Origin: a virus
Length of the DNA: 11,799 bases
UHGV virus genome: UHGV-0101678
Strand: one strand, 5' to 3'
Within the stretch, counting starts at the first letter, position 1, and each line of letters begins with the position of its first letter. Below, piece after piece: positions 1-11,799 of the stretch. The notes under the pieces are model-generated. The model did not search any database. It saw only the letters and a list, made by a program, of their open reading frames with translations, and was not told the origin of the DNA. A program made the translations under genes and the position numbers.

Positions 1-87
1 GATCCTGATCGTCTTGCCTTATTGAATATGATTGCTATTTGCATTTAAAATCGAGACCTGGTTTTTCTACTGAAATGATTATGACTT

Positions 88-100
88 CAATGACCCTTGA
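88..100. repeat. 13-bp direct repeat, copy 1 (caatgacccttga); copy 2 at 11745-11757
   Basis: Exact 13-mer read at both positions. A single exact 13-mer pair is expected about once by chance in a window this size, so significance is weak. Left copy lies in AT-rich DNA; right copy lies at the compositional boundary. Confidence 0.3.
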
Positions 101-155
101 ATGAAGTCTATTCGGTTTTCTAAGAGACCTGTTAATTACAGGACAATATCAGGTG

Positions 156-180
156 TAGTTGGGCTTGTTCCAACCCCTAT
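156..180. repeat. 25-bp direct repeat, copy 1 (tagttgggcttgttccaacccctat); copy 2 at 3235-3259
   Basis: 24/25 identity with the copy at 3235-3259 (single t/a difference). Contains an internal 5-bp inverted repeat gttgg / ccaac. Far too long to be a chance match. Confidence 0.7.
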
Positions 181-350
181 GACTATGCAATTTAATAGTA
201 GTTTTCCAAGTATCTAAGCAGTTTCACACAGATTCTATGCAGTATCGGTATAGTCTCTTTTTACCCTAACTCATTGAAATATATAAAGAATCTGTGAAGT
301 CTCTTTTCAGGGTAAACTGTATCGTGTTAGTCGTCCCTCTCCAGACACTA

Positions 351-390
351 CATATAGTGCTATATACAGGGCTATATAACGATATATAGA
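351..390. repeat. AT-rich reiterated motif, three copies of (g)ctatata / gatatata at about one helical turn spacing
   Basis: Read directly: catatagtgCTATATAcagggCTATATAacGATATATAga, copies starting near 359, 371 and 381. Iteron-like or protein-binding array; function unknown. Confidence 0.35.
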
Positions 391-501
391 TGTTTGGTCA
401 CCATACGTTACAGTTGCAAGAGATAACAATCAGCTATGTGAAAGTTAGGAAGTGATGGTTATAGTTACCCTCCTAAAATCTTCATAGCTCCTTCATAACC
501 A

Positions 502-624
502 GTCTTAAAAGGACTTCCTTTTGAGACACTTTCAACGTAACGGTAGAATGCACCCTCAAGGAGTCTTAAAAGGTTGTTTTTGGATTATGAGACAGCTAAA
601 CTTATGAGACTAACTTTTGAGACT
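502..624. promoter_or_regulatory. res/hix-like recombinase binding-site cluster and probable autoregulated promoter region upstream of the serine recombinase gene
   Basis: 26-bp imperfect palindrome at 502-527 (gtcttaaaagga-ct-tccttttgagac, arms 11/12 complementary). Second site 563-593 pairs gtcttaaaa with ttatgagac across a 13-bp spacer. Two further direct half-sites ttatgagac (602-610) and ttttgagac (616-624) sit just before the RBS and ATG at 639. The reverse complement TGTCTCATAA resembles the Tn3 resolvase half-site TGTCTGATAA as I recall it. Confidence 0.5.
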
Positions 625-638
625 TCTAAGGGGGATGT

Positions 639-1187
639 ATGGCGGTGATTGGTTATTGCAGGGTATCAACACAAGACCAGACTGTAGACAACCAGAAACT
701 ACAGATAGAGAAGGTTCACAAGGTCGATAAATGGTTTATTGATGAGGCTGTCTCAGGAGCTACAAAGGCCACCAGCAGAGATGGTTTTAGAGACATGATG
801 AACTATGTAAGGTGTGACGATACGTTAGTTGTGGTAGCTATTGACCGTTTAGGGCGTAATACCGTTGATGTGCTCTCTAACGTTGAGTCACTACAGACTA
901 AAGGTGTGAGAGTTGTTTCTTTACGTGAAGGTTTTGACCTGTCTACACCAATCGGTAAAGCAATGCTTACTATGATGGCTGGTTTAGCTGACCTTGAAAA
1001 AGACCTTATCAGTGAGCGTAGAAAAGCTGGTATTGAACGTGCTAAAGCTGAAGGGGTTCACATGGGAAGACCCGTAAAAGCTTCTTCAGAGACTGTAAAG
1101 ACGCTTATTTCACAAGGTAAAACGAGGTTGCAGATTCAGGAAGAGCTAGGAATCTCTAGAGCAACTTATTACAGACTTGCTAAATAA
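639..1187 (+). CDS. small serine recombinase, resolvase/invertase family (Hin/Gin/TnpR-like), 182 aa
   Basis: N-terminus MAVIGYCRVSTQDQ matches the catalytic-serine motif (compare Hin MATIGYIRVSTIDQ). AIDRLGRN motif present. C-terminal GRPVKASSETVKTLISQGKTRLQIQEELGISRATYYRL is a resolvase-type HTH. RBS aaggggg lies 4-5 nt upstream. Confidence 0.9.
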   Translation: MAVIGYCRVSTQDQTVDNQKLQIEKVHKVDKWFIDEAVSGATKATSRDGFRDMMNYVRCDDTLVVVAIDRLGRNTVDVLSNVESLQTKGVRVVSLREGFDLSTPIGKAMLTMMAGLADLEKDLISERRKAGIERAKAEGVHMGRPVKASSETVKTLISQGKTRLQIQEELGISRATYYRLAK

Positions 1188-1367
1188 GTTACTGAATAGT
1201 TACATGGATGTGACTGATATTTGGCTTTTTTGCAAAGGGGGTCACATAGCTGGTGTGACGGGTACTTAGCAGCTACAGATTGATTGCAGATATTTTCGAA
1301 GATTATCGGGGAAGGGAAATGTAGAGGGGCTAGTCATTTTTTATAAAAAATTTAGAGGCTGGATATT

Positions 1368-1405
1368 ACCTGTATAGATTTTAACCAGTATAGAAGCCTG
1401 TATAA
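1368..1405. repeat. three direct copies of cc(t/a)gtata(g/a) in the recombinase-methyltransferase intergenic region
   Basis: cctgtatag (1368-1376), ccagtatag (1385-1393), cctgtataa (1397-1405). Lies directly upstream of a small RBS-preceded ORF pair. Possible operator or iteron. Confidence 0.3.
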
Positions 1406-1871
1406 CATGAGGGGTTCCTATGGTCACTATATCCCTCTTTCCCACTAAGGAAGCCTTAGCAGCACCTAGGCAACTATTGACTAAGGTCAACTTCATAAAC
1501 TCAGAGTTAAGTTACCTTGAAAGATTCTACCAAGAAACTACACAGGTATTATTTAGTCTGACTGTGAAGAGATGTTTAACGGGAGGAAGAGAACCATGAA
1601 ACCGAAGGTAGGTTCTATCTTAACAGTGACCGTAAGAAGAGAACTTGAGAGACAACTAAACAAACCTCTTAAGTAAAAGACAACACTCCAGAAAGAGTGT
1701 CTGTTTAACAGGCTTCTCAAAAGCTCTTAAGAAATCTGTTAAGTAGGGTCATGTGAACAATCTTACCATTTTGTCAAGTGTTTTGTCTTTGACCTAAATC
1801 AATAAAATGTATCGTTTGATATGCTTTTAAACAAAATAGCTAAAAAATCTTTTTAGAGGGGCGCTTCGCTT

Positions 1872-2540
1872 GTGTCACATCCAATAATCAATGTCGGTCG
1901 TTATCATGGTGGTTCTGATGACTGGCGTACACCGTATCGTTTATTTCGTAACCTACACCGTGAATTTGGTTTTTCGATGGATGGTGCTGCAACTGAGCAT
2001 GACACGCTGTTACCACGGTTCACCGATGATATTCACAATCAATCGTGGATTGGTGAACGGGTCTTCGTTAACCCGCCGTTTAGCATGGCTGAGCAGTTCC
2101 TCCTAAAAGCCCCTGAAGCTGATGTGTGTGTATGTCTGGTTCCGCACAGGTCAAAGACAACTTACTGGCTTCGGTGTGTATATACAAACCCCTTTCTGCA
2201 TGAGATTCGAACGTTACACCGAGCAGTCAAATACCTTCCACCAGCAGGGAAGAAAGGTGTTGCAGCGCGTTCACCGTTTCCAAGTTGCGTTTTGATATAC
2301 AGGAACACACCCCGCAAACCGAAAGTTGAAGTTACCCAGACAATCTATTGTGGCGACACAATGCTTTTACTTGCCGTGGTTAACAGGGGTGGTTTACGTG
2401 GAAGACCCACCATTTACCCACCTGAGACGCTCGACAGCTTCATAAAGCTATACAGGCAAGGAAAACCCATTAAGTACATTGCAGATGCTCTCAGAATGCC
2501 TCTGAGCACGTCATACAGAATTGCTCAAAGGTTGAGCTAA
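1872..2540 (+). CDS. Dam-family (phage-type) DNA N6-adenine methyltransferase fused to a C-terminal resolvase-type HTH domain, 222 aa; GTG start uncertain
   Basis: Motifs DWRTP, FSMDGAAT, VFVNPPF (NPPF catalytic motif), PHRSKTTYW, HEIRT and SPFPSCV match the phage Dam N6-adenine methyltransferase family. The C-terminal roughly 50 aa (GRPTIYPPETLDSFIKLYRQGKPIKYIADALRMPLSTSYRIAQRL) resembles the HTH of serine recombinases. Putative RBS agagggg 10 nt upstream of GTG. Confidence 0.8.
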   Translation: MSHPIINVGRYHGGSDDWRTPYRLFRNLHREFGFSMDGAATEHDTLLPRFTDDIHNQSWIGERVFVNPPFSMAEQFLLKAPEADVCVCLVPHRSKTTYWLRCVYTNPFLHEIRTLHRAVKYLPPAGKKGVAARSPFPSCVLIYRNTPRKPKVEVTQTIYCGDTMLLLAVVNRGGLRGRPTIYPPETLDSFIKLYRQGKPIKYIADALRMPLSTSYRIAQRLS

Positions 2541-2580
2541 AATTCTCATATAGAGCACTGATTATGAGAATGTTAAAGAG

Positions 2581-2613
2581 GCGATTTCCCCTGTCTGGGG
2601 TTATTCGCTTTTT
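2581..2613 (+). terminator. rho-independent terminator-like hairpin downstream of the methyltransferase gene
   Basis: gcga-ttt-cccc-tgtct-gggg-ttat-tcgc followed by ttttt. A diverged second copy of the same roughly 40-bp element is at about 2744-2783. Confidence 0.45.
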
Positions 2614-3002
2614 ACTGGAAGGGTTATTTTACAGAGGTTTTTCAAACCCCCTCAATAATAGAAACGAGCAACAAACGAAGAGCGAGAAATAAAATATTGA
2701 GACTGGTGAACGGGGTCTGTAAAGATTGTTTAAGAAGTCGGTTAAGAAGGTGGCTCTCCCTTTCTGGGGTTATCGCCTTGTATCTTAGTGAGTCCAGGAA
2801 GTTCTCTGTGAAGAGTCTTGTCAGTCCTTTATATTGGCTAATTACAACTTATTGAAAAATAAGAACTTTTAGAAATTACTGTCAGAGAGGTGAATACTTG
2901 ATAGATACAGCTTTCCGGTTCTGTCAAGCTATTTTTTAATAGATAGCACAAAATGCTAAAGATGCCCCTATACCATCACGTACAGGGGGTTTTGAAGGGA
3001 GT

Positions 3003-3179
3003 TTAACGGGGTTCTGTGTGGTCATTATCCTTAAGGTCAAGCGTCCATGTACGACCGAACAATCGGAACACAACAAGCACTCTGACGAGGACGTAGCGAA
3101 GTAGCAGGCCTGCAAGCAGTCCAACACCTCCACCAGTCCATACATCAGGTGACCCCAGTTCAGGAGGGAGATTTACCAT
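3003..3179 (-). CDS. candidate small hydrophobic protein (58 aa, one predicted transmembrane helix); speculative
   Basis: Minus-strand ORF with ATG at 3179 preceded by AGGA about 8 nt upstream. Product MVNLPPELGSPDVWTGGGVGLLAGLLLRYVLVRVLVVFRLFGRTW... has a Gly/Leu/Val-rich membrane-helix-like segment. Could be a chance ORF over a locally GC-richer patch. Confidence 0.25.
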   Translation of the reverse strand: MVNLPPELGSPDVWTGGGVGLLAGLLLRYVLVRVLVVFRLFGRTWTLDLKDNDHTEPR

Positions 3180-3234
3180 TAAATTTCCTGTGTGCAATGC
3201 AATACCATGTGACCAAATACATAGTTGATTCGGT

Positions 3235-3259
3235 TAGTTGGGCTTGTACCAACCCCTAT
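3235..3259. repeat. 25-bp direct repeat, copy 2 (tagttgggcttgtaccaacccctat)
   Basis: 24/25 identical to 156-180. Flanked by a short inverted repeat attcg (3228-3232) / cgaat (3260-3264). Upstream attcggtt also occurs at 110-117 near copy 1. Confidence 0.7.
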
Positions 3260-3346
3260 CGAATAAACCTCATAGCCACGCCTTTATATTTTCCCTCTCT
3301 CATAAAACCATTATACCACAGATGTTAATGAAATGTTAAAAAATGC

Positions 3347-3375
3347 TTGACATTAGTCTTTGAAACTGCTAAGAT
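3347..3375 (+). promoter_or_regulatory. sigma70-like promoter for the small-gene operon
   Basis: -35 ttgaca (3347-3352), 17-bp spacer, -10 taagat (3370-3375); followed by RBS gaggg and ATG at 3427. Confidence 0.4.
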
Positions 3376-3426
3376 TGTATATATGAGTTAACAGAATAAT
3401 AACATCTTATGAGGGTCAGAATATGA

Positions 3427-3981
3427 ATGAGAGACGCAGAATTTAGAGCGATGCTTCAGGCATCAAGAGAACGCAACAAGCACAACTCCTACGCTTACAC
3501 AGACACCCCCACCAGCCACGAAGTACCCAAGTTCACCAGAGCAGAACGCAAAGGCATTGACGAAGTAATTCGGGCAATTACACCGAGGAGTCGTTATATG
3601 CCAACCAGAAAGAGCACGAAGAACACTATTAAAAATTATCTGGCTAACTTTGATTCTTACGAGCAACTACCATCAAAAATTGAAGATTTAATTATCGGAT
3701 TTTGCAGAAGTGAAGGTCACCCGAAATACAACAAAAAACTATTTTATATTCTAAAGAATCTTGATGAAATTAACGCAGCCAGCGTGACAAATTATCTTCA
3801 AAGACAAGCAACCAGACTTAGCTACGAATTACCAAGCGATAAATATTGTGCATTGCTTGCTGTAATGTGTGCAAAGCTGATTGGTATTGTTGAACATCAT
3901 ATTGCCGTTGGGAATATTGAGCCAATGGAAAACGAGCAACCAGACTTTGAGTTTGACCCGTATATTTTGGAGGAATTTTAA
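3427..3981 (+). CDS. hypothetical protein, 184 aa, first gene of operon
   Basis: Long ORF with RBS (gaggg) and upstream promoter-like element. No motif recognised by eye. Confidence 0.6.
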   Translation: MRDAEFRAMLQASRERNKHNSYAYTDTPTSHEVPKFTRAERKGIDEVIRAITPRSRYMPTRKSTKNTIKNYLANFDSYEQLPSKIEDLIIGFCRSEGHPKYNKKLFYILKNLDEINAASVTNYLQRQATRLSYELPSDKYCALLAVMCAKLIGIVEHHIAVGNIEPMENEQPDFEFDPYILEEF

Positions 3982-3982
3982 A

Positions 3983-4264
3983 ATGAAAACCAGACACACA
4001 CTAACCAGAGTTACAAAGACAGCCTTTGAAGAACTTAACAAAATTAAGAAGGTTACAGGTCTTTCACATGCAGCAGTGATGAAGCTTGCAATTAACCGTG
4101 ATATTAACGAGCAGGATTTGCTTAATAGTCGCTTAGAGGCAGCAAGACACCATATCCGGATTAAGAAAGATGACCTTGATAGTCTGAAATCTTTAAATGC
4201 TTTTGGACTGGATTTAGCAAGGTTGCTAAGCATCAAAATTAACAAGCTATCTCAAGAGGTCTGA
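3983..4264 (+). CDS. ribbon-helix-helix (CopG/Arc-like) DNA-binding protein, 93 aa
   Basis: Start moved to ATG 3983 (RBS ggagg 3971-3975; the previous gene stops at 3981). N-terminal TLTRVTKTAFEELNKIKKVTGLSHAAVMKLAIN follows the beta-alpha-alpha pattern of CopG-type RHH proteins. The track start at 3881 would overlap the upstream gene. Confidence 0.55.
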   Translation: MKTRHTLTRVTKTAFEELNKIKKVTGLSHAAVMKLAINRDINEQDLLNSRLEAARHHIRIKKDDLDSLKSLNAFGLDLARLLSIKINKLSQEV

Positions 4265-4266
4265 CT

Positions 4267-4539
4267 ATGAAGCAATGGCGAGATGATATTAAACGGTTCT
4301 TTGCAACTTACTTCATGATTAATTACGAAACAGGAATGCTTGAATGGATTGATGGTGGAGAGGTTAAGACAAGAGATGACGCTTACGGTAATCCAATGAT
4401 TCGTTATGGCACTCGTGATTATTATGTGAAATATGTCATCTGGTTTTTGCATCATGAAGTTCAGGCAACTAAAAAGATTATCTTCAGGGATGGTAATAAA
4501 AGAAATTGCCACCCAAACAATTTACTACTGGAGATTTAA
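4267..4539 (+). CDS. HNH_3-like protein, 90 aa, with degenerate catalytic motif (likely inactive or domesticated HNH)
   Basis: C-terminal DYYVKYVIWFLHHEV...IIFRDGNKRNCHPNNLLLEI parallels the phage HNH_3 signature (YYxHRLxW...DHIDGNxxNNxxxNL), but HRL is replaced by KYV and DHIDG by FRDG. RBS agagg upstream; 2-nt gap from the preceding gene. Confidence 0.55.
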   Translation: MKQWRDDIKRFFATYFMINYETGMLEWIDGGEVKTRDDAYGNPMIRYGTRDYYVKYVIWFLHHEVQATKKIIFRDGNKRNCHPNNLLLEI

Positions 4540-4739
4540 TGTTATGTATTAAATTCGAATATTTGACAGATAAAATGATTAAGCATGTATCAGACCTGCT
4601 CATCAAAGAAGGTGGTTTCGGTGATGCTTGCAATCCAAAAGATATCTTCATTCATGCCACCAGCCCAAACGCAACACTAAAGACAGCAGTTACAGCGGAA
4701 TGGTTTGAACGAAATAAAGCGGAATTAGGTTATTGGTAG
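4539..4739 (+). CDS. hypothetical small protein, 66 aa (translationally coupled)
   Basis: ATG at 4539 overlaps the upstream stop (TAATG) with ggag 5 nt upstream. The track ORF start at 4506 lies inside the upstream gene. Confidence 0.45.
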   Translation: MLCIKFEYLTDKMIKHVSDLLIKEGGFGDACNPKDIFIHATSPNATLKTAVTAEWFERNKAELGYW

Positions 4740-4918
4740 TCCGAGACTTTAAGAGAAATTAGAAAAACAGCTTCTCAGACGCTCTCAATCGCATTCTAAC
4801 GCAAAAAACTACCTTATTTTAGGGTGGGTAATACCACTGTGCAGGCTACCCCTGAAAAAGACTGTTTAGCTCGTTACAGAGCGATTGAGGAGGTCTGGTA
4901 AAAAGGAGATTTTAAGAA

Positions 4919-5242
4919 ATGAATAATTACGAATTACAGATTTTCGTTGATAGCGACACCACCATGATGATTCAGGCTTTCACTGATGCAGATATTATCA
5001 TTGACTTTGATAAGTTGTTAGAGTTAATGGCTGATAATGCGGAAAGCATCTCTGACTTTATTCAGTCGGTGGAGTTTAACGAGCCTCGAATGATGCTACC
5101 AATTACAGACTCAAACATGAAAAGATTGGTTATCGAGCAAACGAACAAATACAGTATTTCCCCAGAGCAATTTTTGAAAGGTGCTGTGACAATCCTGTAC
5201 AGCGATAATATTCTGGTGACGGATTCTGTGAGGGTTCACTAA
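4919..5242 (+). CDS. hypothetical acidic protein, 107 aa
   Basis: ORF with RBS aaggag about 10 nt upstream of ATG. No recognisable motif. Confidence 0.5.
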   Translation: MNNYELQIFVDSDTTMMIQAFTDADIIIDFDKLLELMADNAESISDFIQSVEFNEPRMMLPITDSNMKRLVIEQTNKYSISPEQFLKGAVTILYSDNILVTDSVRVH

Positions 5243-5342
5243 TGATGTTAATTGTATTGTGGACACTGCTAGGGGTATTTGTTGGCTGCATTATTAACAA
5301 TGCGGTAAATAAGAATTGATGTTACCAATCTGTTAAAAGCTG

Positions 5343-5371
5343 TTGACAAATAACCTTGAGCATGACATAAT
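5343..5371 (+). promoter_or_regulatory. near-consensus sigma70 promoter driving a non-coding region
   Basis: -35 ttgaca (5343-5348), 17-bp spacer, -10 cataat (5366-5371), then tgtatatat. No convincing RBS-preceded ORF follows for about 400 bp. Confidence 0.45.
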
Positions 5372-5542
5372 TGTATATATAGGGAGAGCAATTCTCTCTT
5401 ATTTTTCTTTCAATAATCCGATGGATAGATATTCTGAGTTGGAAAGGTGCAATGCTTTTCGCTACATGGCCTTTCAGGTTGGTCTGAGAGGTCATCTCGA
5501 AAAGTCTTTGTTCATTCATTCGTTTGAATCCTTTACAGCTTT

Positions 5543-5570
5543 GCCCTAATCATGATTAGGGCTTTCTTTA
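5543..5570 (+). terminator. perfect 20-bp palindrome followed by a T-rich tract (terminator-like; alternatively a dimeric protein operator)
   Basis: gccctaatcatgattagggc (5543-5562) is exactly self-complementary, followed by tttcttta. Confidence 0.35.
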
Positions 5571-5769
5571 AGAGTTTTTAAACAGACTTTTAAAGAAAGT
5601 TTTCCTGAAACTTCGTTAACGTTATAAGCAAACCTTCAAAGCCCTTCACAGATTATGTTTAGGGCTTTTCTTAATAGAGCATCTTTAATAAATCGTTAAG
5701 TCATCTTCTAAGTGTATTGGCGTTGAAGGTGCTCTATTAAGAAATAACCACACTTAGAGGAAAATTATA

Positions 5770-6480
5770 ATGACAAACGATTTATATATTAACGGTAGAA
5801 AGGTTGATAGCTTCGGTGACTGGTCGCCACAGACTGAACATCCAGCTATCGCTATTCAGCGTAAAGAACACGATGAAAGAATTAAGCTTGAGCAATCGCT
5901 AAAGATGTCACCAAAAACAACCATCTTTGTGTATCCTGAACCTCAGGAGATGCCTGATGTTTGCAAAACTGAATCATTACTTGAGCTTGAAAAGAAATAT
6001 TACCCACTGCTAAAAGCACAGCGTATTAAGCTTGATATTGCTTACGACAATGTGAAGAACTTTGAAGAGACTGAGAAGCCAACTGATTTTGATATTGAAG
6101 TGAAAATTAGACAAAACCCATTCGTATATTACTCAGTTGAGGATAATGATGGTTTTGGTACAGCAAGAGAGAATATCTCAAAAGTTCTTCAAAACATCCC
6201 TGAAGGATTCCGTTTAATTGATGTTAGACCAGCTTCACGCGGTACAGGTTCATATATTTTACTGTCTGATAAAACAGATGAAGAGATTTGTCAGTTAGCT
6301 GAAAAGAATCTACTTGAGCGTCATAGCAAAAAGTTAAACAGATTTAAGCAAGAACTTGCTAACCAGCTTCAGGCTATGAAAGAGCTTGTGAAAGAATATG
6401 AAGATGCTAAGAAGGTTGCTATGCAGGCCGATATTGAGCAGCTTACGAAGATTTCTCAGAAATATGCAAAGGCTATTTGA
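5770..6480 (+). CDS. hypothetical protein, 236 aa, with C-terminal coiled-coil-like segment; first gene of the tail-like block
   Basis: ORF with RBS agagg about 9 nt upstream. C-terminus rich in heptad-like K/E/L/A residues. Position relative to the tape-measure gene suggests a structural or assembly role, unproven. Confidence 0.6.
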   Translation: MTNDLYINGRKVDSFGDWSPQTEHPAIAIQRKEHDERIKLEQSLKMSPKTTIFVYPEPQEMPDVCKTESLLELEKKYYPLLKAQRIKLDIAYDNVKNFEETEKPTDFDIEVKIRQNPFVYYSVEDNDGFGTARENISKVLQNIPEGFRLIDVRPASRGTGSYILLSDKTDEEICQLAEKNLLERHSKKLNRFKQELANQLQAMKELVKEYEDAKKVAMQADIEQLTKISQKYAKAI

Positions 6481-6488
6481 GGTGATTA

Positions 6489-6797
6489 ATGAATGATTTA
6501 ACAGAACGCGATGAAGCAACTAAATTTTTAATTGAGCATTTTGAAGGTAAATTACAGGGGATTCGAACGACTCTTGATGATATACAGACATACAGTGAAT
6601 ATATCATTGCCAGTTTGAAGGAAAAAACTCTTGATGAGCTAAAGTATATGGGGCGAGATGACTTAACAGTTTCCCTTATCGACCTCAAAGACAAAGTAGC
6701 TGCGCTCGATAAAGAGTATTATGAGACCTTTCTTTCACTTCGTTACGAAATTGTAAAGAACGAACGCGGTGTAGAGTGCCTTCGCTTCTTAGATTAA
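6489..6797 (+). CDS. hypothetical small protein, 102 aa
   Basis: ATG 6489 with RBS gaggtga. N-terminus MNDLTERDE is paralogous to the next ORF. Confidence 0.55.
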   Translation: MNDLTERDEATKFLIEHFEGKLQGIRTTLDDIQTYSEYIIASLKEKTLDELKYMGRDDLTVSLIDLKDKVAALDKEYYETFLSLRYEIVKNERGVECLRFLD

Positions 6798-6823
6798 AAT
6801 CGAATTAAAAAAGGTGGTGGTGA

Positions 6824-7027
6824 ATGATTGATTTAACAGAACGCTATGAACTTATTAAAGCAATTAGCGAACGATTGAAAGAACAACCCAACAAACCAAA
6901 ACGAATCAAAGCATCACCTCTAAAACAAAATGACAGAATCAGAAGAATCGCTAAGTGGTGTCTTGATAAATTACCAAGTGATTGTCAGATTGTCGGTGAA
7001 GATGGTAATTATTATCTGGTTAGGTAA
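6824..7027 (+). CDS. hypothetical small basic protein, 67 aa; N-terminal paralogue of the preceding ORF
   Basis: ATG 6824 with RBS aaggtggtgg. The first 27 nt of the coding sequence are nearly identical to 6489-6515 (MIDLTERYE versus MNDLTERDE). Confidence 0.5.
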   Translation: MIDLTERYELIKAISERLKEQPNKPKRIKASPLKQNDRIRRIAKWCLDKLPSDCQIVGEDGNYYLVR

Positions 7028-7053
7028 CAAGAATTGGTTGGGTGAAAATCTAC

Positions 7054-7093
7054 GGGAGAGATTATCGAGTGACATCGGTAACTCTCCTTTTTT
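7054..7093 (+). terminator. hairpin plus T6 tract between the small ORFs and the tape-measure gene (attenuator or terminator candidate)
   Basis: gggagag (7054-7060) pairs with ctctcc (7082-7087) around a 21-nt loop, followed by tttttt (7088-7093). Confidence 0.4.
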
Positions 7094-7123
7094 GTATATG
7101 AACACTTAAGAGGTGAAACATGA

Positions 7124-9172
7124 ATGAGCAAATTCACAGTTGATAGTTTTATCGTTGAGCTAAGCTTCAATGAAAACGTTGTTAAGGGCTTGCAAAGAGT
7201 TGAAAAGGCAGCTTTGCAGTCAGCACAAAGAATTGAACGTAATTTGAATAGAGCGTTTAAGGTCGATACCAAGCAACTTGACAGCAATCTGACAAGTTCT
7301 TTAGGGCAACTTGAAAGGAAGTTTAATAAGACCTTTGACAAGATTGAGCAGCGTCTTAAAAACACTAGAGCGTTTAAGATTAAAACGGAAATTGAGGATA
7401 CTTTAAAGCCACTTAGACAGCCAAGACAGCCACGAATTAGCGGCAACAGAGCAATCACAGCAGCTTATTCAGCGAATATGTCTAAGCTAAAAGGTCTTAA
7501 CCCAATTGTCGAGAAATACATTAAGAGTCAGTTTTATGGGCTAGCTAGTAAAGCTGGTCAGATGGATAACACCAAGTTTAATGAAGCCCTTGCTAAACTA
7601 AATTCAAGTGTAAGAGAAGCAATCACTAAAGCCAGAGGTCATACATCCACCAGCATTAATGGTGACAGAGCAGCTAGCAGCCTTGATAACCTGTCTTCGG
7701 CAGCAGTCAAAACAGCAGGTGCATTTATCTCAATGCAGGCTGTATTAGCCAGTTATCAGAAGATTATGGAAGTTGGTTTACAGCGTGCAAGTGCTGAACG
7801 TTCAATTGATTTCGTATTTGATAAAGATGCAGGTCAGGTAAAAGAGTTCACAAAGTCATTAGCTCAAACAACGGGTTTAGATATCGCTGAACTGCAATCA
7901 CAGTTTGCTGGTTTTGGTGCTTCAGCTAAAGAATCTATGGGTATTCAAGGTTCTGAAGAACTTTTTAAAAATATGATTGGCTATGCTCGTCTGATGGGGA
8001 GAAGTGAAGAAGAGATTAAGCGAGCACTGACAGCATTATCACAGATGGCTGGTAAGGGTCAGATTATGGCTGAAGAGCTTAAGGGGCAACTGGCTGAAGC
8101 TGTTCCTGGTATGGTGCAGGTGTTCGCTAAAGCAACCGGAAAGAGTGAACAGGAATTATTTGATGCCATGAAGAAGGGGGCTTTAAAATCTGCCGATACT
8201 CTTCAGAAGGTCACTCAGGAACTGAATAAACAAATCACCGCTAAAGGTGGCTGGAAAGCCATTTCAGAAAGTACTCAGGCACAACTAGGGAACCTGAAAA
8301 ACTCTTGGAATACCACGCTTGATAGTATCTTCAGAGGTTCTGAAAATGGTCTTCAAGATTTCACAAGAAGCCTAACAACGCTTTTAAACGCTCTTGGTGG
8401 AAGTGGTAAAAGTCTTGGTGAATCTCTTGGTAGCTTGATGACTGATATGTCACATGGTGTCGATTCATTGACTGATATTTCTTACAAGGTGAGAGGTTTC
8501 TTTGATGAGGTGACATTGGCTTATCGTGGTTTAACCGATGAACAAAAGAAAGTTGTTGATGCTTTAGGTTCTGGCTTGATTAATAGTTTAAAAGTCTTGG
8601 CTGGTGTTATTGCTGTGAATAAAGTTGTTGGTGTAACCAGAAGTATTTACGGGCTTATGACTGCTATCACAAGATTAGGTCAGGTCGCTGATACTACAGC
8701 GGATAACGTGAATAGAAAGAACGGGAAACCATCAAGGTTTAATCTTGGGAATATGCTATTAGCTGGTAGTGCTATCTATGCAGGTTATGAGAGATTAGCT
8801 TCTACGCCTGAACGAATGGAAGCACAAGCTAAATTACCAGAGCTGGCTAAAGAGTCTGGACTTAAGCCAGTATTTACTATGGACGATGTGAAAGGTTGGT
8901 TTAATAGTGCAGCTATGAATCTTGCTAACTTCCAGCATCCAGAATTAATCACCATGAGACAAGATGCGGCATTAACGAATACGGATATCCAAAGCCTGAG
9001 AGATGAAATTAGTGCTTTGAGCAAACGTATTCAGGAGCCTGTGAAAGTTTCACTTGGTGGTGAAGTTGCCATTAAACCAGATGAAACCAGCTTTATGACC
9101 TTTAGCAGTAATATCTACGACCAATATGCAGAAGCTACGCTATTAAGTTCATCATTCCCAGAAGATGATTAA
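7124..9172 (+). CDS. tail tape-measure-domain protein, 682 aa
   Basis: Central segment GYARLMGRSEEEIKRALTALSQMAGKGQIMAEELKGQLAEAVPGMVQVFAKATGKSEQELFDAMKKGALKSADTLQKV matches the conserved tape-measure core motif (PG-containing helix pair). Overall the protein is long, helical and low-complexity as tape measures typically are. RBS agaggtg 8 nt upstream. Confidence 0.75.
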   Translation: MSKFTVDSFIVELSFNENVVKGLQRVEKAALQSAQRIERNLNRAFKVDTKQLDSNLTSSLGQLERKFNKTFDKIEQRLKNTRAFKIKTEIEDTLKPLRQPRQPRISGNRAITAAYSANMSKLKGLNPIVEKYIKSQFYGLASKAGQMDNTKFNEALAKLNSSVREAITKARGHTSTSINGDRAASSLDNLSSAAVKTAGAFISMQAVLASYQKIMEVGLQRASAERSIDFVFDKDAGQVKEFTKSLAQTTGLDIAELQSQFAGFGASAKESMGIQGSEELFKNMIGYARLMGRSEEEIKRALTALSQMAGKGQIMAEELKGQLAEAVPGMVQVFAKATGKSEQELFDAMKKGALKSADTLQKVTQELNKQITAKGGWKAISESTQAQLGNLKNSWNTTLDSIFRGSENGLQDFTRSLTTLLNALGGSGKSLGESLGSLMTDMSHGVDSLTDISYKVRGFFDEVTLAYRGLTDEQKKVVDALGSGLINSLKVLAGVIAVNKVVGVTRSIYGLMTAITRLGQVADTTADNVNRKNGKPSRFNLGNMLLAGSAIYAGYERLASTPERMEAQAKLPELAKESGLKPVFTMDDVKGWFNSAAMNLANFQHPELITMRQDAALTNTDIQSLRDEISALSKRIQEPVKVSLGGEVAIKPDETSFMTFSSNIYDQYAEATLLSSSFPEDD

Positions 9173-9329
9173 TAATAGTCGAATGCTACGTGAATAAAGC
9201 AAAGTTAATACCCACACTAAAAATTATTTTTTACGTAGCTCACGCTTAACAGAGAAAACACTTATATATCAAAGGCTTGGTTAAAAATGATTAAAACACA
9301 CTAAGCCTTTGAAATCAAAGGAGAATTTA

Positions 9330-10103
9330 ATGATTTTTAGCAATCAAATCCGCTACAGTGGCAAAGATGGCGTTTACTTCCACTTAAGAGATAATGTAGA
9401 TGCCTTCTTAACCTTATCAGCAACTGAAAACATGGAATTTGACAGCCCTATGCAGGTGACTACACAGAACATGCAATCAGGGCAAACCGTCACAGATAAT
9501 GTGCAAAGAGCACCCAGAACAATCACTATTAGTGGTGTCGTCGTAGTTGGCTATGAAGGAAGCTTATTATTAACTCGTCAAGGCCAATTAGTAGAAAACT
9601 TCATTGACACTCTTGAAAGCTGGCGTGACCAGAAGCAGATTATTTCGGTCATCTGTAAAGATGGTATCAAGATTGATGACTCCATTATTACGAGTTTTAA
9701 AGCCTCTAAAGATGTTGGTATTTCAAATGGTCTAAGAATCCAGCTAACTTTTCAGGAAATCAACTTTAAGGCTATTGTAGGGCAAACTGATATTTCAGCA
9801 GCCACTGGCAAAACGGCTACCACAAATGATGGTGGCGCTACCAGCAAAAAGAATGCGGGTAACGTGACTACTGAACGCAATAACGCACCTATGCTGATGT
9901 GTCAGGAACTGTACAGTTACTCAGCGTCTGAGCTATCTGATGAAGCATTAAAAGCCCGTAGTAATTGCTCTAAAAATGTCACGGTGAAAGATGGTGTAAG
10001 CACCTTCACAGACTCAGCTAATTCAGGTGCTGCAAAGGTACTCAAGTCGGGTAATGCTTTACGGAAGTTTTCTGTGAATCCGAACAAGAAGGGCACTTAT
10101 TGA
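9330..10103 (+). CDS. hypothetical protein, 257 aa; candidate distal-tail-type protein by position only
   Basis: Start set at ATG 9330 (RBS aaggag 7 nt upstream) rather than the track TTG at 9309. Lies immediately downstream of the tape-measure gene. No motif recognised. Confidence 0.6.
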
Positions 10104-10108
10104 GACAT

Positions 10109-10130
10109 AAAAAGGGGCTTCATAGCCCCT
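10109..10130 (-). terminator. rho-independent terminator for the integrase gene (hairpin between convergent genes)
   Basis: aggggct-tcat-agcccct perfect 7-bp stem (10113-10130). On the minus strand it is followed by TTTT(A), and it sits 6 nt beyond the integrase stop. Confidence 0.5.
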
Positions 10131-10135
10131 GATTG

Positions 10136-11656
10136 CTACAGTTGATAAGCGTCTATTTCTAGTAGCTCTTTTTCAGCAATTTCAAAGATAGATGTTCCAT
10201 CATTTAGAGGTAGCGGGTCTGTAGGAACAATTATTTCAGTGTCGTTCTGTAGCGTTACAGTTACCGAATCCTTACCCAATGTAAGCCCTTTTAGATGCTT
10301 GGACAAAATCAACTGACACTCGACACGACCCGCTTTAGTCATAAGGTCAATATCTTTAAGCTGGGGTAGTTCCTTATCAGTGAGTGAAGCCTTACGCCTC
10401 ATGTTATCAATCATGGTCTGTAGTTCTGTGCGCTTCTGGTTCAGTTCCTTAAGCTGAATTTTTAGTTCATCAATATCATCCATCTCAAGAAGTAGGGCGG
10501 TAGCTTTCTTGATTCTGGCTGTGACAATTTCAACCTCATGCTGTAGAGATGCAATCTTCCCCTCTGCTTCTCCATCATTCCCCACGTCAATCATCCCCAG
10601 AAAATTATCAATCATCCACTTATCAAACGGTTTACGCTTCAACGGTGGAACATCACAGCGACCGTCTAAGTGGTTATTGCACCTGTAGACCCCAGCATAC
10701 TTATTCTTAGTCCCTGTAGGGTGAACACTAGCCCCACACTGACACCGGAATAATCCCTTGAAGATGTTAATCGTTAATGGGTTATCACTTGCAGGTGTGC
10801 GACCTTTACGATTTTTATCGAGGATTTCTTGAGCTTTATTGAACGTTGAAGCATCTATAGCGGCTTCGTAGTAGTTCGGTATAGCGGGGCGGTCATTGCG
10901 CTGTGATGCTGGTAGTGTACCTCTCGTTGTCTCTGACCTTAAGATAGTACGCACAGAATGAACGCTAAAACCATTAGCATCTTTACGCCGTGAGAATGAA
11001 CTAATGTTATTAGCCTGTAGGTGACGGGCGATGTTATGCAGACTTTCACCATCTAGCAGCAGCTTGAAAATCAGTCTTACAGTCTCAGCGTGTTCATTGC
11101 ACTTGAAAGTATCGGGGTCAATCCATCCGGGAACCATCTTTGTAAGACGTTGTTCACCAGCAAGGGCAAGCTTTGCACGTTGTTTCCACTTCTGGCTAAC
11201 ACGGAAAGACTTCTGCTTAGACTCTTGATGAGCTACGTAGCTTTTAACGCGCTGGATGATTGAGATTCCTAAATCATCGGATAGAGCATCCCTTGTGTAG
11301 ATTAGCCCATCCTGTAGAGTGTGAATCTCGATACCATGAGCAATAATGCGATTCATCAAGGCTTCTGTTTCAAGATGTTCAAGGCGGCCTATGCGGTCGA
11401 TAGCTTCGACTAACAGAAGTGTACCTTCTGGAAACTCCCCAGACTCAATACGGGCTAACATGTCACCAAACTGACCAGTAAGATGCTTACCTTTGTAACC
11501 ACTCAACCCTTCATCACTGAAAGACGCTACTACTTGAGCATCGCTATTCTTCTTCAACCATTGCTTGAACAGGTCATTTTGTCGTCTGGTTGAATCTGCA
11601 CCTTCAGCGCCTTGTATGGCTGATGAGAATCTCAAGTATGTTATTACACTTCTCAT
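10136..11656 (-). CDS. large serine recombinase (integrase), 506 aa
   Basis: N-terminal catalytic domain (ITYLRFSSAIQ, EAIDRIGR), recombinase domain, a Cys-rich zinc ribbon (FRCQCGASVHPTG...YRCNNHLDGRC) and a C-terminal coiled coil give the typical large-serine-integrase architecture. Confidence 0.92.
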   Translation of the reverse strand: MRSVITYLRFSSAIQGAEGADSTRRQNDLFKQWLKKNSDAQVVASFSDEGLSGYKGKHLTGQFGDMLARIESGEFPEGTLLLVEAIDRIGRLEHLETEALMNRIIAHGIEIHTLQDGLIYTRDALSDDLGISIIQRVKSYVAHQESKQKSFRVSQKWKQRAKLALAGEQRLTKMVPGWIDPDTFKCNEHAETVRLIFKLLLDGESLHNIARHLQANNISSFSRRKDANGFSVHSVRTILRSETTRGTLPASQRNDRPAIPNYYEAAIDASTFNKAQEILDKNRKGRTPASDNPLTINIFKGLFRCQCGASVHPTGTKNKYAGVYRCNNHLDGRCDVPPLKRKPFDKWMIDNFLGMIDVGNDGEAEGKIASLQHEVEIVTARIKKATALLLEMDDIDELKIQLKELNQKRTELQTMIDNMRRKASLTDKELPQLKDIDLMTKAGRVECQLILSKHLKGLTLGKDSVTVTLQNDTEIIVPTDPLPLNDGTSIFEIAEKELLEIDAYQL

Positions 11657-11744
11657 GGTGATAAACTCTCATGCAATTGATTATCATTTAAAGATGAACT
11701 TATAAACGTTATGGCTAATGCTACAATGCCGAATAGCTACAATA

Positions 11745-11757
11745 CAATGACCCTTGA
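11745..11757. repeat. 13-bp direct repeat, copy 2 (caatgacccttga), at the compositional boundary next to the integrase gene
   Basis: Exact match to 88-100. Immediately followed by GC-rich sequence (11758-11799, about 60% G+C by count), unlike the rest of the window. Confidence 0.3.
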
Positions 11758-11799
11758 TTTACCTCGCCGCTTCCCCTGGCCGACGTTACTTTCGGTCTG

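Follow-up and report, generated by a model that had tools for sequence, protein, structure and literature searches.

A tonB-inserted Escherichia coli island with Felix O1-like tape-measure and tube-initiator genes: a candidate tail-hijacking phage satellite

The stretch of 11,799 nucleotides from virus genome UHGV-0101678 (hereafter the window, meaning the whole stretch that was analysed) holds a complete member of an enterobacterial family of integrative elements of ~11-12 kb, which we read, with a probability of about 0.55, as a tail-hijacking satellite of Felix O1-like phages. It is likely that the island is a mobile element specialised to interact with Felix O1-like tail assembly in some way; the most specific form of the proposal, a first-recognised satellite family of these virulent phages in Escherichia coli, Salmonella and relatives that swaps tape measure and tube initiator and sabotages the phage, we place slightly short of even. 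The window contains 13 plausible genes, and the absence of head, portal and terminase genes put forward in an initial annotation of this DNA was borne out, no open reading frame (ORF) in the window matching capsid, portal or terminase families above threshold in Pfam, PHROGs or NCBIfam.

At both ends of the window the DNA matched the tonB region of the chromosome of E. coli, the host, and the element is delimited by the following features (aa, amino acids):

1-89, plus strand: host DNA, the native tonB upstream and promoter region (100% match to the empty site L003; sigma70-like site at 22-51)
90-100, unstranded: attL copy of the core ATGACCCTTGA (exact repeat at both ends, single in the empty site)
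10136-11656, minus strand: large serine recombinase, the integrase, 506 aa (PF00239, PF07508, PF13408; phrog_95 integrase, E=3.2e-78)
11657-11746, plus strand: right end of the island, now upstream of tonB (promoter-like site at 11658-11687; Fur-box-like AATTGATTATCATTT)
11747-11799, plus strand: attR core and start of tonB coding (MTLDLPRRFPW...; tonB annotated at the same position in the relatives L001 and L006)

The 11-bp core occurs twice, at 90-100 and 11747-11757, and once in the empty site, and its right-hand copy is formed by the first 11 nt of tonB. The window flanks are contiguous in the empty E. coli site L003, which bounds a complete element of 11,657 bp within the window and places the insertion point exactly at the tonB start codon; the element ends are identical in the tonB-type relatives L001 and L006. 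Together with the domains of the 506-aa protein (Resolvase, Recombinase and Zn_ribbon_recom), whose gene is convergent with the tail block, these data show that a large serine recombinase put the element at the tonB start codon with the 11-bp core flanking it. Because core repeats and host DNA lie on both sides, the element cannot run on into a head module, and the leftward continuation into such a module that the initial annotation had envisaged was ruled out by the cores inside the window. Two human-gut metagenome contigs agreed with the window at 100% identity and one E. coli assembly at 99.99%. Island-bearing E. coli include GCA_031617835.1 and the RefSeq strains DJH_183sputum, GN25 and MSB1_9I. 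GC content was 40.0% for the island, 39.4% for the phage region and 45-48% for the host flanks.

These boundaries bear directly on the choice, offered earlier, between a satellite and a severely reduced or decaying prophage that keeps part of a tail module and an integrase. Phage-derived tail genes do lie beside an integrase here, and some copies of the element are interrupted by insertion sequences (IS), as a decaying prophage would have it. Against this, the element is bounded in the window and lacks a head module, the same layout of ~11-12 kb, its ORFs intact and under purifying selection, is seen at four sites, relatives excise precisely, and the left half had no counterpart among phages: a sensitive blastn search with positions 92-5800, in which a pac site and promoters were sought, gave zero matches in 50,697 phage records. 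Nor was an integrase seen in the Ounavirinae records examined (for phage ekra, in the region shown only); Ounavirinae, or Felix O1-like viruses, are virulent phages of ~86 kb without an integrase. On the bounded element, the four-site recurrence and the precise excision of relatives, the prophage half of the choice was rejected as hardly credible, and the satellite half stood as the best-supported one, given the bounded element, its excising relatives and its helper-compatible surfaces.

Those surfaces belong to the products of two adjoining genes:

7124-9172, plus strand: tape measure protein, 682 aa (phage-like at both ends; core diverged and shortened)
9330-10103, plus strand: tube initiator, homolog of Bas63 gp18, 257 aa (phage-like tube-like domain, variable linker, conserved extreme C-terminus)

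The profile search asked for in the initial annotation upheld the 682-aa protein as a tape measure, with matches to PF20155 (TMP_3; 69.3 bits, cut-off 41), phrog_4036 (E=1.6e-81), TIGR02675 (50.7 bits, cut-off 21.35) and PDB entry 9ndy_F, the 742-aa tape measure gp17 of phage Bas63 (E=6.5e-67). The following gene, which starts from an ATG with a GGAG ribosome-binding site (257 aa; a TTG at 9309 gives 264 aa), matched PF21821 Dit_like (E=3.6e-20, 72.8 bits, cut-off 24.2), phrog_3721 (E=5.6e-134) and PDB entry 9ndy_A, 'tube initiator gp018' (E=5.8e-124). The suspected distal-tail likeness was therefore found in the Dit_like match, but by homology to 9ndy_A the last gene of the block is a tube initiator and not a siphovirus distal tail protein. 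Likewise, the siphovirus tail order read into the block could not be kept, as its only tail genes are the tape measure and the tube initiator, both of them myoviral.

By the same comparisons, the pair is homologous to the adjacent Felixounavirus genes gp17/gp18 (Bas63, 9NDY; ekra, MN850644), with the same adjacency, the same order, and conserved termini and tube-like domain, and differs from them in lying inside a chromosomal integrative element, where unrelated orphans replace the upstream chaperone genes. Megablast against the 50,697 phage records retrieved Felix O1-like myoviruses only, at 88-95.5% DNA identity and only over patches of the two tail genes; phage homologs of the tube initiator came exclusively from Ounavirinae. 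In ekra the homologs adjoin in the same order and encode a 735-aa tape measure and a 266-aa protein, and DNA similarity to this phage was limited to 9345-9863 (91.5%), 7115-7258 (77%) and 10050-10101 (79%).

At the protein level, island and phage tape measures share 28% identity overall and ~80% over the first ~45 residues, and the C-terminus of the island protein (LLSSSFPEDD) is close to that of the phage (LLSSSYPEEE). Both of these ends are invariant in five island variants (682-710 aa), whereas the core is ~28% identical to the phage and the island protein is 53-60 aa shorter. In the tube initiator, residues 13-180 are ~99% phage-identical, the next ~70 are diverged and the extreme C-terminus is again conserved (seven island variants). 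The cryo-EM structure of Bas63 shows the C-terminal 25 residues of the tape measure touching the puncture apparatus and the hub, and the tube initiator as a tube-like hexamer that joins hub to tube and sends a ~100-aa C-terminal extension through the baseplate, its linker passing beside the spacer proteins (PMC12609058). Judged from the alignments, the surfaces kept by the island would thus be, in the tape measure, the first ~45 aa and the C-terminal residues and, in the tube initiator, the tube-like domain, the remainder having diverged. Since conservation across 5-8 island variants is limited to the parts that contact phage components, we strongly infer that both island proteins are built to join the tail pathway of a helper. 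Such interface-only conservation pinpoints what a myovirus needs of its tape measure and its tube initiator for assembly.

All segments of both tail genes were under purifying selection (omega 0.05-0.4). Synonymous divergence (dS) between island and phage was 0.52 in the tube-like domain, equal to the between-island value, 1.8 in the C-terminal part of the tube initiator and 2.9 (saturated) in the tape-measure core; the low dS of the tube-like domain relative to its neighbours, and the mosaic as a whole, imply that island tail genes have probably been exchanged with phages.

The divergence of the tape-measure core admits another explanation, in which the island is an integrative, possibly episomal element whose tail genes are cargo unrelated to assembly (for example, a block to DNA ejection or superinfection through tape-measure or tube-initiator proteins displayed in the envelope), or whose helper is an unsequenced phage group. 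The closest sequenced phage tape measures are 28-36% identical to the island protein, so that its core is indeed far from sequenced phages (at most 36%). By contrast, the tube-like domain is ~99% identical to Felixounavirus and reaches 95.5% in DNA, and the termini of the tape measure match this genus specifically. This genus-specific near-identity is hard to explain if the proteins need not fit Felix O1-like partners, and no signal peptide or envelope-related domain was found in the family scans; we consider cargo or an unsequenced helper quite improbable.

The tail genes are separated by a 136-nt spacer, probably regulatory, in the island and abut in the phage. Within this spacer lies one further feature:

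9184-9254, plus strand: conserved island-specific element of ~75 nt, GCTACGTGAA...TTTACGTAGCTCACGCTTAA, upstream of the tube initiator (alignment)

This element, which contains GCTACGT...ACGTAGC as inverted halves, lies ahead of the tube-initiator gene in every island and, in some, ahead of the tape-measure gene as well; it was also located in L005 (10401-10470), L018 (10482-10551) and L015 (~21290-21370). It is probably a shared operator or promoter; a copied phage late promoter was considered and rejected, the element being absent from the phage structural region and from the phage records. In a separate observation, the record GU169904.1, named 'Staphylococcus phage SA1', carries tape-measure and tube-initiator DNA of the Felix O1-like kind, which matches the island patches at ~91% identity, and looks like a mislabelled or chimeric database record.

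Precise excision was established for the family through its wrbA-type relatives. In a metagenome contig from ENA, L018 (11,210 bp), the two ends coincide exactly over 111 nt, the k of its assembly, and the contig closes to an 11,099-bp circle; a contig from a different metagenome, L017, is 99.8-100% identical to it and runs past one full unit. At its junction L018 agrees at every base with the attP expected from attL and attR of the integrated relative L019, with the crossover GTGCTTT at about codon 7 of wrbA (L019 15881-15981 and 4292-4392; L018 4255-4355). An exact search for the wrbA-type attP yielded three further metagenome contigs (L028, L029 and L030), of which L028 (11,233 bp) has a 55-nt overlap that gives an 11,178-bp circle of a distinct variant. 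Circles of ~11.1 kb were thus host-free in five metagenome assemblies (ERZ27238394, ERZ28588843, ERZ506742 and ERZ506766 are among the assemblies with circular contigs), and L018 and L028 share the middle module with the window. L017 further contains two variants of the small serine recombinase region (1-320 versus 10624-11501), one with a 384-bp deletion, which suggests a mixed circle population in that sample.

Another closed contig, L014 (Logan SRR29454733_31861, 11,680 bp), has an exact 30-nt terminal overlap and forms an 11,650-bp cycle of the yecE type. It was rejected as excision evidence, as its junction (~2619-2634) joins host yecE to a point ~330 bp inside the island, not at an att site, through an imperfect 15-nt microhomology; it is an aberrant circle or a high-copy tandem amplification.

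The wrbA-type island brings a substitute 5' end for the gene it enters (MSVKARILVL- replaces MAKVLVL-), and for this reason RefSeq still annotates an intact wrbA; entering a gene at its 5' end and then repairing it seems to be a habit of the family. At tonB, the insertion has left the gene 11.7 kb away from its native promoter region. The promoter-like site at 11658-11687 and the Fur-box-like AATTGATTATCATTT, the likeness of which was assessed by eye only, raise the possibility that the right end of the island gives tonB a replacement iron-regulated promoter; total counts in the sigma70 and terminator scans were not above those of shuffled sequence. In some relatives (L021 and L023) TonB is called as a 251-aa protein that starts inside the island.

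The initial annotation had left to comparative genomics whether the element recurs without head genes, and it does, relatives of the same ~11-12 kb architecture being found at four sites. Tail-block relatives are present in 482 of 5,426 complete E. coli genomes (about 9%), in 140 at 80% coverage or more; in E. coli all are chromosomal, occupy up to six places per genome and are in part IS-broken. The family also occurs in Salmonella, Shigella, Citrobacter and E. fergusonii, and because these hosts together with E. coli correspond to the host range of the helper group, this distribution was counted in favour of a Felix O1-like partner. Gene order is conserved among relatives (184-aa-type module, HNH, 107, 236, (102), 67, tape measure, tube initiator, large serine recombinase). 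Insertion was found at the tonB start (L001, L006) and in mdtG (L004), yecE (L005, L015) and wrbA (L019), and the large serine recombinases of different site types share a mere 28-35% identity.

Comparison of the window with L001 revealed left-half DNA ~98% identical and an integrase 97% identical, around proteins of much lower identity: ~25% for the 107-aa and 236-aa proteins, 42-59% for the 102-aa and 67-aa proteins and the tape measure, and 92% for the tube initiator. From this divergence amid ~98% flanking identity, the cassette that runs up to and includes the tape-measure gene is a fast-diversifying exchangeable unit.

Several observations on individual copies were made in passing. The tape-measure gene is split by IS2, IS3, IS21 or IS100 in many of them (H62-H69; H50, H53 and H54), including a set of near-identical human isolates, which indicates that the island is inactivated in some lineages. 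Strain SCU-387 (NZ_CP051688.1) holds a yecE-type and a wrbA-type island in one genome, and this, with up to six places per genome, means that members with different recombinases can co-reside. The RefSeq labels 'tape measure protein', 'phage baseplate protein' and 'transposase' give no sign of one mobile element.

Upstream of the tape measure, the block comprises three smaller genes:

5770-6480, plus strand: island-specific coiled-coil protein, 236 aa (RefSeq label 'transposase'; no Pfam domain)
6489-6797, plus strand: orphan in the chaperone position, 102 aa (model: helical hairpin plus beta-hairpin, pLDDT 84.9)
6824-7027, plus strand: orphan, 67 aa (N-terminus paralogous to the 102-aa protein)

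The ORF map and the serine recombinase domains agree with the initial description of five plus-strand ORFs (236, 102, 67, 682 and 257/264 aa) that end at a convergent integrase. For the 236-aa protein, the structure prediction that had been called for yielded a coiled-coil AlphaFold2 model of low confidence (pLDDT 67.5) and zero fold matches, and no match was found in Pfam, PHROGs, NCBIfam or PADLOC. Its 3,126 cluster-level homologs all come from E. coli, Shigella, Salmonella, Citrobacter and E. fergusonii, and an exhaustive HMMER search of 1.84 billion sequences returned 18 representatives only, all of the island type. The RefSeq name 'transposase' given to its homologs was rejected, since Pfam, NCBIfam and PHROG gave no transposase domain and 120 homologs bore no Pfam domain in precomputed annotation.

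The 102-aa and 67-aa genes occupy the position of the two phage tape-measure chaperones (132 and 79 aa), and the N-termini of their products are related to each other (hhalign E=9e-4), with 82% identical DNA at the gene starts (6481-6524 versus 6816-6859, repeat D2; MNDLTERDE- and MIDLTERYE-). The 102-aa gene is missing in relative L006, consistent with a deletion between these 82% repeats. Their assignment as tail assembly chaperones (TAC), a class represented by gpG/GT-like proteins, ekra gp90/gp89, the TAC 5IR0 of the Vibrio satellites known as PLEs and HK97 2OB9, was rejected. BLASTP against the phage chaperones gave nothing, and hhalign with the 102-aa protein a probability of 0.2%. AlphaFold2 with Foldseek against PDB and BFVD recovered no chaperone for the 102-aa model (best E about 0.15), phmmer against PDB gave 0 matches at E<=10 for the same protein, and PDB sequence searches with the 102-, 236- and 184-aa proteins gave zero matches, 5IR0 included. 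The 236-, 102- and 67-aa proteins are thus island-specific orphans lacking detectable tail-protein homology or fold, and the term 'tail-assembly-like' for the whole five-gene block rests on gene position only.

The closest parallel is provided by the Vibrio PLEs, which assemble chimeric tails and have genes for a chaperone, a tape measure and a baseplate hub; PLE11 puts its own tape measure and hub in place of those of ICP1, in tails ~10 nm shorter, and deletion of the PLE tape-measure gene lowers transduction by ~99.9% (PMC11838301; PMC12987554). The earlier remark that the layout is atypical of described satellite families has accordingly become outdated. Both kinds of element are small chromosomal islands that have a large serine recombinase and lack genes for capsid, portal and terminase; each has a tape measure of its own and an adjacent baseplate-proximal component, shorter or diverged relative to the helper's; and both have a virulent myovirus as helper (presumed for the island) and excise as circles (for the island, in the wrbA-type relatives). 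Unlike the PLEs, the island resides in Enterobacteriaceae with a presumed Felix O1-like helper, measures about 11.7 kb instead of about 18 kb, and inserts at the 5' ends of protein genes, supplying replacement upstream sequence. Its second tail gene encodes a tube initiator (gp18 homolog) and not the baseplate hub BhuB, and its tube-like domain is ~99% helper-identical, compared with 19-41% for the PLE proteins. A chaperone fold, RepA, a TcaP-like scaffold and an Rta homolog were not recognised in the island, the PLE being set beside it by description.

To our knowledge, the Vibrio cholerae PLE-ICP1 system is the only one in which a satellite of a strictly lytic phage has been described in detail, and the finding that satellites rebuild tails with a tape measure of their own dates from 2025-2026. 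The PICI, cf-PICI and P4-like families of Enterobacteriaceae rely on temperate helpers. They are E. coli chromosomal islands of ~10-15 kb that exploit helper phages, as the island is proposed to do; their hallmarks (tyrosine integrase, AlpA, Pri-Rep or alpha primase, TerS, capsid genes, Psu/Delta/Sid) gave no above-threshold match for any ORF in Pfam, PHROGs or NCBIfam. In the Extended Data Fig. 10 legend of PMC12987554, some cf-PICIs are reported with putative tape-measure genes, and the tape-measure-bearing satellites listed in that paper are Vibrio PLE-like elements and cf-PICIs only. No E. coli or Felix O1 satellite of this type was found in the full-text literature, a coverage that leaves out most subscription journals. 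The concept is thus known from the PLEs; the family, its helper group and the interface-mimicry pattern appear undescribed within the searchable literature.

By analogy with PLE11, infection would cause the island to excise and to replicate from its middle module, and its tape measure and tube initiator would take the place of the phage's own, giving chimeric tails on particles that carry island DNA. These tails are predicted, from the 53-60-aa shortening of the tape measure, to be ~8-10 nm shorter (about two 3.8-nm discs). One or more of the fast-evolving orphans (107, 236, 102 and 67 aa) may chaperone the island tape measure or block that of the phage, lowering phage yield; in PLE11 a small protein, Rta, blocks the phage tape measure (PMC11838301).

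If the satellite reading is true, a separate and abundant family of Enterobacteriaceae follows the same course as the PLEs, and the rebuilding of tails is a general strategy. The family would then be amenable to study in E. coli, where BASEL phages Bas61-63 are at hand and the solved Bas63 baseplate allows interfaces to be mapped. It would also constitute a common, unannotated resistance determinant against Felix O1-like phages, which are widely used in Salmonella and E. coli typing, biocontrol and therapy, and at about 9% of complete E. coli genomes would be common enough to sway the outcome of Felix O1-type phage therapy or biocontrol.

Several results weigh against hijacking for transfer. 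No packaging evidence was obtained when attP in viral contigs and terminase genes were looked for: the tonB-type and wrbA-type attP were both absent from IMG/VR viral contigs, and IMG/VR matches to the 236-aa family bear isolate-genome identifiers. In the window, a terminase small subunit, a pac site, a capsid-remodelling protein and a recognisable replication initiator were not identified; phage-derived regulatory DNA was not found in the island, nor did sequence and fold comparisons identify a tail assembly chaperone among the block proteins. A circular tonB-type island was likewise not found, its attP junction being absent from viral and metagenome contigs, and contigs with the exact window tape measure were all integrated forms. 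The bulk-metagenome circles of relatives could reflect spontaneous excision or episomal maintenance and not phage induction; that they bear no sign of phage involvement, and that some members have a replication initiator, also suits the cargo explanation weighed above. Finally, island tape measures vary in length from 682 to ~726 aa, for which reason tail re-sizing may be incidental and a fixed re-sizing is not obviously the point.

Much of this would also be expected of an island devoted to defence alone, in which the tape measure and tube initiator act as dominant-negative decoys that lead to defective tails or baseplates, with no transfer in particles and rare movement by other means. Interface-only conservation suits poisoning as well as hijacking, the diverging part of the tube initiator is the C-terminal linker that in Bas63 lies beside the spacer proteins, packaging functions and virome matches (IMG/VR) were both lacking, and the hypervariable cassette suggests an arms race. 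Interference with tail assembly is, moreover, a known defence theme, exemplified by Tai (PMC11364771) and PLE11 Rta (PMC11838301), which the island would resemble, as a proposal, in encoding such interference on a mobile element; these are small proteins that are not structural homologs, in contrast to the full-length structural homologs of the island. The island, however, has a full autonomous mobile-element kit and forms precise circles, abundant enough to come out host-free in five assemblies, its cassette occurs at no fewer than four insertion sites (>=4) and in several genera, which implies efficient horizontal transfer, and PADLOC gave no relevant match. We know of no defence system that uses full-length structural homologs, and we regard defence alone as rather unlikely.

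The remaining features lie in the left half and the middle module of the island, with one hairpin at the end of the tail block:

156-180, plus strand: 25-nt direct repeat, copy 1 (repeat family D8, 96% identity; copy 2 at 3235-3259)
639-1187, plus strand: small serine recombinase of the resolvase/invertase type, 182 aa (PF00239, E=8.1e-42, and HTH_7; phrog_125 DNA invertase, E=2e-58)
1872-2540, plus strand: phage-type Dam N6-adenine methyltransferase with a C-terminal helix-turn-helix, 222 aa (PF05869, E=2.6e-13; PADLOC orphan methyltransferase, E=1e-8)
3427-3981, plus strand: orphan, first of the middle module, 184 aa (no family matches; 62-100% in relatives, including circular forms)
3998-4264, plus strand: 88-aa ORF (weak, sub-threshold match to P27 small-terminase TIGR01558 or DndE-like)
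4267-4539, plus strand: HNH endonuclease, 90 aa (PF13392, E=4.4e-5; phrog_959, E=4.7e-5)
4539-4739, plus strand: orphan, 66 aa (annotated in relatives; no family matches)
4919-5242, plus strand: orphan that opens the hypervariable cassette, 107 aa (25% identity to L001 despite 98% identical flanking DNA)
5343-5744, plus strand: control region (sigma70 promoter at 5343-5371; hairpins at 5381-5399, 5543-5562 and 5630-5677; 22-nt inverted repeat at 5667-5688 and 5723-5744)
10113-10130, minus strand: terminator-like hairpin in the gap separating the tube-initiator gene from the convergent recombinase gene (terminator scan)

The 25-nt repeat, TAGTTGGGCTTGT[T/A]CCAACCCCTAT, is partly palindromic and brackets the small serine recombinase and the Dam methyltransferase; the region between its copies may be a nested 3,079-bp cassette, or the repeats may be target sites of the recombinase. 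The matches of several relatives to the window start at 183, right behind the first copy. Apart from the orphan methyltransferase, the PADLOC defence scan returned just a spurious coiled-coil ZorA match.

In the wrbA-type relative L019, the slot of the 184-aa gene is taken by a 325-aa protein with matches to O-like and DnaD-like initiators (E 5.9e-9 to 8.7e-7); the 184-aa protein was considered as a homolog of this replication initiator and rejected for want of detectable similarity. The match of the 88-aa ORF to TIGR01558 was sub-threshold (E=0.0075, 16.3 bits, cut-off 45.6), and the HNH endonuclease of the window is 99-100% identical in the circles L018 and L028.

The control region begins with the near-consensus promoter (TTGACA-17-CATAAT with TG), followed by the terminator-like hairpins, the 22-nt inverted repeat and then the 236-aa gene. 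It could encode a small RNA or form a leader with conditional termination; the region gave no Rfam match, and no small RNA, riboswitch or tRNA was found in the window with Rfam and ARAGORN. Some gene callers place a 65-aa minus-strand ORF in this region (L026 5393-5590).

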